Positions 24,001 to 27,000 of a DNA stretch of 64,000 nucleotides are shown piece by piece; position 1 is the stretch's first letter; every line of letters begins with the position of its first letter. Made by a program: the position numbers. The stretch comes from Candidatus Aminicenantales bacterium (GTDB taxonomy: Bacteria; Acidobacteriota; Aminicenantia; Aminicenantales; Saccharicenantaceae): contig JBEKXF010000010.1 of assembly GCA_049512315.1 (NCBI GenBank), positions 1 to 64,000 on the forward strand. Direction: 5' to 3'.

Positions 24001-27000
24001 CGTGGCCGTCCCCGTGTCCTGGCAGGTCGGGAGCTCCCCCTCCGCGGAGATGGCCGCGTTGCGAAGCAGGGCGCCGGCCACGAAACGGTCGTTCTCGGAG
24101 GCCGCAGGATCGCCGAGGATCGCGGCCAGGTTCTCGAGATGGCGCGTCCTGAAGAAGAAGGCGACGTCCGTGAACGCCTCCTCGGCCAGGAGCGTCAGGG
24201 CCGCCGGCTCCACCCGGAGGAAGGTCCGGCCGCCGCTTTTCATCGTCCGGACGCCGTCCCTGATCTTCCGGTATTTGACGGTTTCCCTTTTCATCGGGAA
24301 CAGGGGGTCTTGGGAAAAGCGGGGCATGGCGGCTCCCTTCAGTCCTGGATTTCCATGGATTCGTTGATGTCTTCGAAGCCCGCGATCTCCTTGTAGCCGA
24401 CCATGCCGACGAGCATGTACTCGTTGGTGAGATAGTTGAACTTGAACTCCTTGAGGAGGCGGAAGGCCTCGATCTGGCCCGTGCTGTGGACGTGGGTCCG
24501 CGGGCCCGTGCAGAAGATTTCCGTGTCGCCGACCCGGATCGCGTCTTCCCCACCCGGCGAGATGGGAAGATTCTGGGAGATGACGTCCTTGACCTTGGCC
24601 TCGAGCTCGTGCAGGTCGATGTCGGGCCGCTCGGGAAAGTTGATGACGAAGCCGTGCCGGACGTCGGAGTGGAGGACCTGGCTCTTGTAGTGGTAGTCGC
24701 GCTCGAGGATGGAGACCGTGATGTCCTCGGCCGAGTGGGCCATGAGGCGGTACTTGATGGTCTTGTCCACGATCGCCTTGATGTTCTGGGGGAAGGGCCC
24801 GAAGATCGAGGGCCGGGCCACGAGGATCTCCTCGCCCAGCCCGATGAGGACCTGGGCGTTCATCCCCAGGGCCTCGTAGATCAGGTCGAAATGCTCGACG
24901 ACGACCCGCCGGTTGGCGAGGACGGCGTTCCGGATAGCCTCCTTGATCTTGTATTTCTGCTTGAAGGCGAGCTCGTAGCGGATATCGACATGAAAAGTGT
25001 GTCCGGAAAAAAAATCTTCCGAAGAGAATCCGTAGAGGGGGGTGGGCTTGACGTTTACGCCTTCGTCGTCGTTGGTCAGCTCGAGCCCCGGAAAGAGGCC
25101 CCGGATGAGGGTCGACTTGCCCGACCCTTCCGAGCCGATGATCCCGATCAGGAAGTCCGTCGGCGTCAGGTAGCGCCGAGAGATCTCGTTCGCGACCATG
25201 TAGAGCCGCTGCCTCCCCCGCGGGGCGTAATAGGCGGCGTAGATCAGCGTGTCGTTCCTGGCCGTGGCGAGGTTGTACATGGCGGCCTCCTCGGCTAGAA
25301 GGTGATGTCGAAAAGGGGCGCGTGCTGCTGGGCCCCGTAGATATCGGTCTCGCCGGGCGCGCCCGAGGGGATCCGCCGCCGCAGCGTGACCTTGACCGCG
25401 TGGCTCGGCTCGAAGTAGACGACCCTGAGGATATCGCTCTTGGGGACGCGGTAGAGGCGGGAGATGAGCGCCGCATTGATGATGCGCCTCTTCTTGAAAA
25501 GCTCGTAGAACTCCCGGTCCTTGAACATGATGTCCAGGGTCAGCTCGTACGGCCCCGAATTCTTGGAGCGGATGACCTTGGCGGCTTCGAGGATGTTTCT
25601 TTTCATCGTAGCTCCTCGTCCTCAGAAAACATGGACCTTCGACGGGAACCCGTCCGGGTCGTCAAGTTCCATCAGGTGATAAAGCGAAAATTCGTACATC
25701 CGCCCCATGGTGATGTCCGAAGGCGAAAACGGGAAAGCCAGGTTCCCCGCCGTGGAGATCCGGCCGGGATAGCCGTAGTGAAGCAGCGTAGACCGGGTCA
25801 CGGAAAGCAGGGCCTCCGCCTCCTCCGGCGTCCGGCCCAGGGCCTCGATGAGGATGCCCAGCTCGTGGGCCGGCGCGTCGCGGTGGGGCTCCAGCTCGCC
25901 CATGACGCCGTCCTTGCCGTACACGTGGAAGAAGACGCGGCCGCGGTTGCCTTCTTTTTTCAGCATGGCCCGGACCTGCCCCTCCACGCTCTTCAGGATC
26001 GCGTCGATCCCCGCGATCATGATGGGGTCCCTGACGCCGGCGATGGTGATGGCCCGGTAGCCGGTGGGGCGGGCGCCCTCGAGCTTGATGAAGTACTTCT
26101 CCGTAGGGACGAACCGGCTGCCGCGGACCTCGACCCGGCCGCCGCCGATGTCGGTGAAAGAGCAGCCGGTGAGGTCGATCTCGCCGCCCGGCCCGGGCAG
26201 ATGATAGGGGTCCGTCTTTTCATAAAGGGTGTGGGCGGCCGTGGATTCGGGGGTGAAGCGCCGGGCGGGCGAAAGGGCCTCCAGGATGAAGGAATCCTGC
26301 CTCAGGGTCCCCAGGGCGCAGTCCGACCCGGACCCCGGCGTCGCGGCGATGGCCGCGCACTCGAGGATCTTGCCGAGATGGAGGGCCAGGCCCGGGTTGT
26401 AGCCGCGCATGATCGGCAGGGCGGCGAAGACGGCCGGGTCATAGCACCGGCCGGCGAGGACGACGTCGCATTTTTTCTTGAGCAAACGGATGATCGGCTC
26501 GATGCCCATCTGGCCGACGATGTATTCGGTCTCGAGAACGGCTTCGCGAGTCAGGTTTGGAACGAACGCCAGCGGCTTGACCCTGCCGCGCCTCATGGCC
26601 CTGAGAACAGTTTCCTTCTTGAAGTCGGCGTAGACGACGCCGAGGCGGAAATGGAGCTTCTCCTCCCGGGCGATCTCCCGGATGATCTCCAGGCACCACT
26701 CCGTGTGGGGCCGCGCCCCCGAGCCGCCGGCCGACCCGACGACGACGGGGATCTTTCGGCGGACACCTTCGGTGATCATGTACCGCAGGTCCCTCTTCAC
26801 CCCCGCCCGGCTGGTGAAGGACTTGCCGACGCCGAGGTAGTAGGGGCCGGGGTCGGTCGAGCCCGCGTCGGCCGCGATGAGGTGCGGCTTCCGGCGGAGG
26901 CCGTTCCGGAAGGACGATTCGGGGAACCCGTAGCCGAGGATGGCCGTGGTCGACAGGATCCGGAACTCGGGGAGTGTTTTTCCTCGGGGTTTATCCATTG

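Follow-up and report, generated by a model that had tools for sequence, protein, structure and literature searches.

An operon for the methylaspartate route of glutamate fermentation in a Candidatus Aminicenantales bacterium includes an orphan gene, encoding a 313 aa protein (here termed X) in which a P-loop domain like those of TsaE, UbK and DUF3388 proteins is followed by a truncated AlaX/ThrRS-type editing fold. Judging from sequence, X most likely controls or maintains this pathway, although some organisms with the pathway lack X. Tentatively, we favour an accessory control protein rather than a catalytic step: a ligand-gated ATPase or kinase, probably acting together with the GntR regulator of the operon, whose activity, ligand and target we infer.

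The X gene and its two domains

All genes of the operon lie on the minus strand of the window, the 64,000 nt stretch of contig JBEKXF010000010.1 that was analysed. The GntR regulator (31572..32561) has a YtrA-like HTH, and its C-terminal region is similar to PTS EIIB, receiver and PrpR-N domains; upstream of its gene is a candidate operator palindrome, TGG-N6-CCA (32580..32591; no strand assigned). Glutamate mutase is represented by glmS (B12-binding subunit, 31132..31575), glmL (accessory protein, 29688..31100) and glmE (large subunit, 28235..29683), and methylaspartate ammonia-lyase (MAL) by mal (26991..28238); these exceed the cut-offs of TIGR01501, TIGR01319, TIGR01503 and TIGR01502, respectively. 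The next two genes encode citramalate lyase subunits A (cmlA, AtuA/DUF1446 family, 25622..26998; PDB 9ERQ_A, E 4e-173) and B (cmlB, DUF4387, 25295..25606; PDB 9ERQ_B, E 1e-28). X itself (24339..25280) has a GGAGG ribosome-binding site and is spaced 14 bp from the preceding DUF4387 gene and 11 bp from a class I fumarase gene (22714..24327), the probable mesaconase on the basis of context and an excerpt of PMC4682846; an earlier note had placed a hypothetical protein between these two, and the ORF bears out a real gene there. With the CmlAB citramalate lyase encoded beside X, the four catalytic steps are all accounted for by other genes. Clustering of the other neighbouring ORFs revealed no additional conserved gene.

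A homolog search returned the 1912 family members reported earlier, the best 120 at 61-98% identity. No Pfam or NCBIfam model matched X above its cut-off, the best being tRNA_SAD (E 5e-4) and TsaE (E 0.066), and PDB sequence searches found P-loop matches only. Among 1.84 billion representatives there were 315 matches, the 150 listed being family members or fragments, whilst a phage search with X gave no match. Longer fused forms numbered none among 1738 candidates of 549-2000 aa, which argues only weakly against their existence. Many members have been automatically named 'alanine-tRNA synthetase second additional domain-containing protein' by NCBI, which labels a domain and not a function; literature searches, whose scope excluded supplements that could list such genes, found no paper on the family. 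Conservation is enzyme-like at both sites, with 49 positions conserved in at least 98% of 378 sequences, and the tree length is similar to that of GlmE, in agreement with the strong conservation originally noted.

The predicted structure of X (AF2; pLDDT 83.9, pTM 0.77) suggests that residues 12-162 (24795..25247) form a TsaE-like ATPase domain, as had been proposed: Foldseek matched this half to YjeE/TsaE (1htw, E 1.2e-5), with Z scores of 9.9-10.3. The earlier count of eight Foldseek matches below 1e-3 was not reproduced, the new model giving 26. The domain has a Walker A motif, Gx4GK[ST] (G49-S56, with G49, G54, K55 and S56 conserved), followed by H97-x-D99-x-R101 and E129-H130; K55, S56, H97, D99 and E129 are each conserved in at least 98% of the 378 sequences, which span three clades. 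An excerpt of PMC13241743 states that UbK1 phosphorylates response regulators, and that its ATPase and kinase activity needs Walker A, HxD and E(W) residues. Read by motif, these five conserved positions of X appear to match the UbK1 catalytic residues. The UbK signatures are altered, however: in place of HxDxYR, H97 and D99 are followed by R-Y/F rather than Y-R, a comparison based on motif order and not superposed coordinates; the W of EW is replaced by the invariant H130; and there is no conserved SPT of the SPT/S motif, the loop instead reading (T/S)NDD. The nearest named relative of the domain by language-model features is DUF3388 (0.91, 182 of 256 features), with TsaE at 0.79. PF11868 (DUF3388) gave no match to X at E values up to 1 and is absent from the 25 families listed for the X alignment. 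This family is uncharacterised, a literature search finding no paper on it; as a lead only, 13% of the members of one DUF3388/YmfK cluster have an ACT domain.

The second domain (residues 174-298; 24387..24761) has a putative metal or ligand site formed by H182, E185, D/E186, C257, R261 and H263. Its proposed AlaX-type fold is supported by the model, which matches 2e1b in Foldseek (E 4.4e-4) and the editing domains of AlaX, AlaRS and ThrRS with Z scores of 11.1-13.4 (rmsd 2.5-3.6 Å over 120-127 residues); at 20.5 bits, X falls short of the PF07973 gathering cut-off of 24. H182 and C257 had been described as invariant and are so in at least 98% of the 378 sequences, but the same description does not hold for D186: Asp predominates in two clades, whereas 80% of the 119 sequences in the clade of the Prevotella protein have Glu, so that every clade favours an acidic residue here. 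That the zinc motif departs from the HxxxH of AlaX had also been recognised. It reads HxxxD/E, and CXGXH is replaced by CxGxRxH, a two-residue insertion relative to the AlaX, AlaRS and ThrRS of this same genome, all of which also retain approximately 26 cleft-wall residues, between the helix and the Cys, that are deleted in X. Neither the acidic residue two positions before the Cys in AlaRS and ThrRS nor the last-strand Arg pair of AlaRS has a counterpart. X has no detectable tRNA-binding domain, C-Ala included, and the median pI of the family is 5.7. In an excerpt of PMC12003907, HXXXH and CXGXH are said to be universally conserved in the AlaX/AlaRS-ThrRS editing family; with its altered motifs and cleft deletion, X is not a member of AlaX.

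Distribution and gene order

Presence and absence were scored at the genome level in the bacterium's own class, Spirochaetota and Planctomycetota. X, glutamate mutase and MAL are found in the same 23 of 151 genomes of the class, and the pathway accompanies X in all three X-positive Planctomycetota and in four of the five X-positive Spirochaetota, the operon of the fifth being split over contig ends. The family was found almost only with the pathway, substantiating its reported tie to glutamate-mutase/MAL operons across phyla. X is not a 'core gene' of the pathway, though, as the earlier note had it: searches failed to find it on the chromosome of E. coli O157 Sakai, which has a glm cluster, in 12 of the 16 glmE-positive genomes among 251 Spirochaetota, and in 16 of the 18 records of plasmids that encode MAL. 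The link is one-way: X implies the pathway, but the pathway does not imply X. With every step encoded elsewhere, the occurrence of the pathway without X in E. coli Sakai and these 12 spirochaetes fits an accessory role.

The contexts described for Prevotella nigrescens and Peptoclostridium acidaminophilum (X homolog WP_025436946.1) were reproduced. A fumarase gene starts no more than 400 bp downstream of X in 60 of the 68 GTDB loci with enough flanking sequence, the other eight having no adjacent fumarase, and where operons are split X stays with the fumarase, away from gntR (locus L061; probably also L045 and L065). In Clostridia-type loci X is found among the lyase-activation genes citC and citXG. 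No match to citC, D, E, F or XG was found in this 96.6%-complete genome, so an ACP lyase cannot be the general target of X; as cit genes are also absent from all 80 GTDB loci, a specific activator or deacetylase of ACP-type citramalate lyase was rejected as a general role. Nor is X supported as an obligate partner of GlmL, which was not found in two X-positive MAGs (G406 and G407), or of CmlAB, since X directly follows mal in four loci (L020, L032, L035 and L078); the query used for cmlA found no match in three of these four genomes. Operons lacking X keep mesAB and glmL, and have a LysR gene (E. coli) or a glutamate symporter gene directly ahead of the glm genes.

Association with GntR and candidate roles

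Ranking the 251 Spirochaetota genomes by their match to the operon GntR puts the five with X, and no others, in the first five places, three of them having contributed to the query alignment; none of the 12 glmE-positive, X-negative genomes has a match. The operon has X near one end and gntR near the other. One genome (G426) with X has an intact HTH-less GntR homolog ahead of glmS. Conversely, GntR is missing from 15 of 76 loci with X and glmS (P. nigrescens and 14 near-identical loci of one gut lineage), X stands without it in locus L162, and neither the 568-kb Prevotella replicon nor G581, where the contig is cut, yielded one. Eight spirochaete genomes have paralogous GntRs without X, mostly ahead of ATP-citrate-lyase-like genes. 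Of 53 upstream regions, 36 contain the candidate operator where 1.0 would be expected, the motif having been chosen by eye from the same set; scanning upstream of relocated X genes gave p values of 0.02-0.8 over 12 regions. In rate covariation GntR is the best partner of X, although weakly (rho 0.37, nominal p 0.009, failing correction for 28 pairs); the known pair GlmS-GlmE reaches only 0.12. Foldseek matches to the GntR model were taken up by its HTH domain, whilst the C-terminal region resembles PTS EIIB and receiver folds (Z 9-10.8) and the PrpR-N sensor (Z 8.7-8.8).

If X is a control protein, a pocket for a small ligand or metal would have arisen from its editing domain, built from H182, D/E186, C257 and H263, and R261, R178 and E185 would be the likely partners of carboxylate and amine groups. 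Such a pocket might read an amino or organic acid of the pathway, for instance glutamate, 3-methylaspartate or mesaconate, and gate the TsaE/UbK-type ATPase or kinase domain, whose target within the pathway would most likely be the operon GntR, but possibly an enzyme, so that glutamate would be drained only when appropriate. A more specific version, in which the editing domain is an amino-acid sensor gating a kinase that modifies the receiver/EIIB-like domain of GntR, would make the two an undescribed signalling pair deciding when anaerobes burn their glutamate pool; we consider this unlikely. Phosphorylation reportedly controls the citrate lyase ligase of Clostridium sphenoides, but this was not used as evidence. 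In favour of a control role are the catalytic steps encoded by other genes and the pathways that lack X, the UbK1-like residues, the DUF3388 resemblance, and the signs of a tie to GntR: the shared distribution in Spirochaetota, the HTH-less homolog kept in G426, the EIIB- and receiver-like C-terminal region and, weakly, the rate covariation. Against it stand the loci with X but no GntR, the GntR paralogs without X, the unconserved SPT motif and the way X stays with the fumarase when operons split. The pace at which X evolves also looks like that of an enzyme and not of a regulator, its tree length of 7.3 being close to the 7.4 of GlmE and less than half the 16.8 of GntR; and the PrpR-N-like character of the GntR C-terminal region means that GntR may sense its effector alone. 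The joint presence of the two genes may reflect co-inheritance of one operon type.

An editing fold matched at Z 12-13, with its first His and Cys invariant and hence editing compatible with what is kept, could instead point to trans-editing, the role put forward in the earlier note, with X hydrolysing mischarged 3-methylaspartyl-tRNA(Asp/Asn/Glu) and its ATPase resetting or releasing the tRNA. According to an excerpt of PMC12003907, editing by AlaRS and AlaX-M survives mutation of the second His, the Cys being crucial, so the His-to-Asp change in X would be compatible with hydrolysis; CtdA (PMC10018355, in excerpt) is a precedent for editing of a non-protein amino acid by a protein that stands alone. 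No fixed protein partner would be needed, fitting the shifting synteny of X. Set against this are the departures from two otherwise universal motifs, the cleft deletion together with the missing acidic residue and Arg pair, the lack of a detected tRNA-binding domain in an acidic family, and the absence of X from many genomes encoding glutamate mutase. To our knowledge editing enzymes do not need an ATPase, and a literature search found no paper showing 3-methylaspartate charged on tRNA. The rMASP preprint (10.1101/2025.11.12.688011), as far as its excerpt goes, mentions neither tRNA nor methylaspartate toxicity, and is no test of this idea. Trans-editing is hence not the best fit, and we think it rather doubtful.

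TsaE resets TsaBD, and by analogy X might be an activase or metallochaperone, spending ATP on loading, repairing or resetting a pathway enzyme prone to inactivation, either the Fe-S mesaconase or the B12-dependent glutamate mutase. Its proximity to fumarase, with which it moves when operons split, its position among citC and citXG in Clostridia, its His/Cys/carboxylate site and its detection only in lineages that we take to be anaerobes would all suit such a function. Yet eight loci have no adjacent fumarase, mesAB and glmL are retained in operons without X, two X-positive MAGs appear to lack GlmL, the want of cit genes here removes an ACP lyase as general target, no known metallochaperone NTPase is among the top fold matches of X, and E. 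coli FumD is active when expressed alone (PMC4682846, in excerpt); this role, too, is not probable. The enzyme-like conservation of both sites and a tree length equal to that of GlmE would fit a metabolite-damage enzyme, coupling ATP to the hydrolysis or conversion of a side product (cyclised glutamate, or a 3-methylaspartate adduct of acyl or amide type) that is returned to the pathway, which likewise needs no fixed partner and could be dispensable in some lineages. However, no result points to a substrate, the co-distribution with GntR is left unexplained, and no TsaE-type domain is known to us in a small-molecule kinase; we regard such an enzyme as quite improbable.

The methylaspartate route is a classic fermentation, the last catalytic gap of which CmlAB has closed only recently. 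Among the genes of this operon type X alone still has no assigned function; its conservation equals that of glutamate mutase, it occurs in many phyla, and either leading answer would be new. As a sensor, it would be an editing fold turned to metabolite sensing that gates a TsaE-like ATPase or kinase, with a bearing on whether TsaE is a tRNA-modification ATPase or a protein kinase and on the DUF3388 family; as an editor, it would proofread tRNA in an ATP-coupled manner, against a non-protein amino acid made by the cell itself. Its role is directly testable, given that one host, P. acidaminophilum DSM 3953, is in culture and the residues of interest are defined, and X may matter for engineered mesaconate or CO2-fixation routes that run the pathway enzymes without it.

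Comparison with known systems

AlaX and the editing domains of AlaRS and ThrRS (tRNA_SAD, PF07973; PDB 9IUW, 1V7O, 1TJE) share with X the fold, over about 123 aligned residues, the first His, Cys-x-Gly and the last His. They differ from it by its HxxxD/E and CxGxRxH motifs, its deletion of some 26 residues, the invariant R261 and the lack of a detectable C-Ala domain; unlike AlaX, X has the fold fused behind a P-loop domain and is confined to one catabolic operon. TsaE/YjeE/YdiB proteins, that is the UbK kinases (PF02367; PDB 1HTW, 5NP9, 6N9A), resemble X in fold (Z about 10), Walker A, HxD and the Walker-B Glu, but X has HxDxR(Y/F) rather than HxDxYR, EH rather than EW, and no conserved SPT. 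In addition, X is two-domain and patchily distributed where TsaE is universal, and it has no tsaB or tsaD operon partner, tsaD lying four genes away in Prevotella only. The canavanyl-tRNA deacylase CtdA sets the precedent of an editor that stands alone and is linked to a non-protein amino acid; it has a B3/4 fold, no ATPase domain and an experimentally shown activity. Long-form uridine-kinase-like proteins (such as the 552 aa product of L186:15397-17055) join a P-loop domain (PF00485) to an N-terminal region that, by eye, we take to resemble the ThrRS N-terminus; the P-loop is of the PRK/uridine-kinase class and the domain order is the reverse of that in X. The accessory domain also differs, and the order is again opposite, in DUF3388/YmfK proteins (PF11868), the closest named family to the X N-domain by language-model features; nevertheless, those members with an ACT domain have a sensor-plus-NTPase layout comparable to that of X.

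Fold and operon context of X

The gene for the orphan protein X (313 aa, 24339-25280 (-)) belongs to a compact series of minus-strand genes, gntR-glmS-glmL-glmE-mal-AtuA-DUF4387-X-fumarase, in which adjacent genes are spaced -8 to 31 bp apart; the neighbours were assigned through Pfam and NCBIfam. X itself reached no curated cut-off in either database (tRNA_SAD, E 5e-4; TsaE, E 0.066). Of its 1912 homologs, the top 120 share 61-98% identity with it. An AF2 model (pLDDT 83.9, pTM 0.77) has two domains, residues 12-162 resembling YjeE/YdiB/TsaE (Foldseek E 1.2e-5; Z 9.9-10.3) and residues from about 174 to 298 the editing domains of AlaX, AlaRS and ThrRS (Z 11.1-13.4), which bears out the anatomy described in an earlier note. 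Both folds are already known, X being a variant of them. The nearest Atlas entry to the N-domain is DUF3388 (0.91), followed by TsaE (0.79), a single source of evidence that serves as a lead only.

The AtuA-family and DUF4387 products match chains A (E 4e-173) and B (E 1e-28) of PDB 9ERQ, labelled citramalate lyase cmlA and cmlB respectively. In a preprint (10.64898/2026.01.16.699985), the Cml of Raoultella planticola serves as an enzyme that splits citramalate directly into pyruvate and acetate. With the methylaspartate pathway laid out as in PMC8473912 and PMC4682846, the operon without X is CATALYTICALLY complete: mutase, ammonia-lyase, mesaconase (putatively the fumarase) and lyase are each encoded by other genes, hence X must be accessory. 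An isocitrate-lyase/PrpB-family gene (21660-22628 (-)) lies on the same strand 85 bp past the fumarase, and was seen in none of the 80 GTDB loci described below. Two further regions were assigned by eye: 10357-16411 (+), a 1181-aa receiver/PilZ-like/hydrolase/methyltransferase multidomain ORF and, after it, a hybrid histidine kinase that ends in an HD-GYP-like part; and 32676-37325 (+), a 1549-aa ORF whose N-terminal part resembles AMP-binding acyl-CoA synthetases and whose end is GNAT-like, with a long unassigned middle.

Among the best 80 of 281 GTDB loci, a set biased to close relatives and labelled as Aminicenantes, Spirochaetota, Riflebacteria, Planctomycetota, Myxococcota and others, mal and glmE were found in 50 of the 51 with at least 6 kb upstream of X, and 60 of the 68 with enough flank had a fumarase starting no more than 400 bp downstream. 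In one locus (L061) X and the fumarase have moved out of the operon, glmE being on another contig of the same genome, as it also is in the genomes of L045 and L065. A Clostridia-type query gave 542 metagenome loci; among the best 80, many of them redundant, 54 of the 57 with enough flank had X next to ACP-type lyase genes. A frequent layout there was citC-X-citXG divergent from citDEF-mesAB-gntR-glm-mal; Peptoclostridium acidaminophilum has the same divergent citC-X-citXG arrangement, with mesAB not within the stretch displayed, and the order in Prevotella nigrescens is glmS-L-E-mal-cmlA-cmlB-X-mesAB. Hence X accompanies both lyase types. No match to citC, D, E, F or XG was found in the present genome (96.6% complete).

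One-way distribution across genomes

X implies the methylaspartate pathway; the pathway does not imply X. Since the samples include MAGs and related genomes, the figures are counts rather than independent tests. In the window's class, X occurs in 23 of 151 genomes, the same 23 that have a canonical glmE, whilst nine more have distant glmE homologs (E about 1e-120) and no X. X was found in three of 251 Planctomycetota genomes and MAL in four, including all three with X. Among 251 Spirochaetota genomes, X was present in five and glmE in 16, with X in only four of these 16; in the fifth X-positive genome (G143) the operon is broken across contig ends. Full rescoring of five X-negative, glmE-positive spirochaetes gave no X match. 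On the E. coli Sakai chromosome the glm cluster is complete, yet X was not found there, and X is on only two of the 18 plasmid-collection records with MAL, each a single replicon. The proposal that X is a core gene of the pathway therefore fails, with X missing from 12 of 16 glmE-positive spirochaetes, the Sakai chromosome and 16 of 18 MAL plasmid records.

Several loci differ in organisation. L177 and L178 are glm-mal-cmlAB operons with a Na+/glutamate symporter and neither X nor GntR; the former has a cobalamin adenosyltransferase after cmlB, the latter a glutamate racemase ahead of glmS. In the spirochaete loci L174-L176 and L189, glmE, with or without mal, is separate from glmS and glmL. 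Family f9 of the window's own class (G353, G363-G381) consists of large genomes that lack X; each has between one and three distant glmE homologs, possibly biosynthetic glutamate mutases. Five records titled 'uncultured Eubacteriales' (L009, L025, L030, L047 and L048) are probably mislabelled, as the L025 protein clusters with Aminicenantes in a quick tree and the other four have that operon layout.

The operon GntR regulator

GlmL, CmlAB and the ACP-type lyase are each missing from some X-positive genomes; the most discriminating companion of X is the operon GntR regulator (31572-32561 (-)). Its profile matched 13 of 251 spirochaete genomes, the five best matches (E at most 2e-74) being the five X-positive genomes, although three of these GntRs were in the query alignment. 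There was no match in any of the 12 glmE-positive, X-negative spirochaetes. The other eight matches are paralogs, seven visibly upstream of a gene pair that, in the one genome where it was identified, is ATP-citrate-lyase-like. This paralogous subfamily (L207-L214) shares the C-terminal region lacking a Pfam match, precedes ATP-citrate-lyase-like pairs and may have a citrate- or citramalate-like acid as effector. In the window's family, the GntR ortholog was detected in 15 of 31 genomes, each of which also has X.

The planctomycete G426, whose operon has X but not glmL, also keeps an intact 243-aa GntR homolog without the HTH (L221:6558-7289 (-)), overlapping the glmS start. The association has exceptions: no such GntR was found in 15 of 76 loci holding X and glmS (Prevotella and one gut lineage). 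Across 32 operons, GntR ranked top of the seven pairs involving X in rate covariation (rho 0.37, nominal p 0.009; not significant after correction), the known GlmS-GlmE pair scoring 0.12. The tree for X has the same length (7.3) as the one for GlmE (7.4); the trees for GntR (16.8) and GlmL (18.2) are each more than twice as long. As the GntR C-terminal region is similar in fold to EIIB, to receiver domains and to PrpR-N, it may be either a phospho-acceptor or a direct sensor. Upstream of gntR lies a palindrome, TGG-N6-CCA (32580-32591), a candidate operator that recurs in 36 of the 53 upstream regions (1.0 expected). Some Clostridia-type loci have a TGA-N6-TCA variant in the citD-X interval.

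Conserved residues and proposed roles

Residue conservation was assessed in 378 sequences from three clades (199 window-like, 60 Clostridia-type and 119 Prevotella-like), excluding the two most divergent. At least 98% conservation was found at 49 positions, among them Walker A, N70, D72, H97, D99, R101, R125, E129 and H130 in the N-domain, and R178, M180, H182, E185, C257, G259, R261 and H263 in the C-domain. Position 186, D in X, is E in 80% of the Prevotella-like clade, in which H204 is not conserved. Of the excluded pair, P0143 has lost H182, C257 and H263 whilst keeping the P-loop domain, and P0128 is without D99 and R261.

The motifs HXXXH and CXGXH are described as universal in the AlaX/AlaRS editing family in PMC12003907. 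Compared with the AlaX, AlaRS and ThrRS of this genome, X lacks around 26 residues ahead of the Cys, has two extra residues separating Cys-x-Gly from the last His, and is missing the Arg pair that AlaRS has in its last strand; X is therefore not, by its sequence, a member of AlaX. Hydrolytic chemistry of the editing type may nevertheless be possible, given that the same paper describes the Cys as crucial for editing and the second His as dispensable. In PMC11260482, tRNA contact is attributed to R693 and the C-Ala domain, although eukaryotic AlaX edits even without R693. Among the rival readings, tRNA editing of 3-methylaspartate, as the earlier note proposed, seems unlikely, and a function as activase or metallochaperone for the mesaconase or mutase equally so; metabolite-damage repair is slightly less probable still.

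We tentatively favour a control role in the methylaspartate pathway, although the odds are somewhat against even this. The remodelled editing pocket would bind a pathway metabolite or metal and thereby gate the TsaE/UbK-type ATPase or kinase domain, with GntR or an enzyme of the pathway as its target; the presumed reason for such control is that glutamate doubles as the nitrogen hub of the cell. Clustering of neighbouring ORFs revealed no conserved transporter in X-positive operons, and Clostridia-type loci often flank histidine-utilisation genes, hence glutamate from inside the cell may feed these operons; by contrast, a glutamate importer is part of several operons without X.

X is a real conserved orphan accessory protein, with a function that is proposed rather than established. 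Its fusion, altered site and pathway link were not described in the open-access papers searched, without their supplements; new here are the one-way distribution test, the three-clade residue analysis, the co-distribution with GntR and its exceptions, and the comparison with DUF3388 and UbK, the TsaE/YjeE/YdiB kinase. Relative to UbK, X appears, from the order of its motifs, to retain the catalytic Lys/Ser, the His-x-Asp and the Glu, but not the SPT, YR and W.
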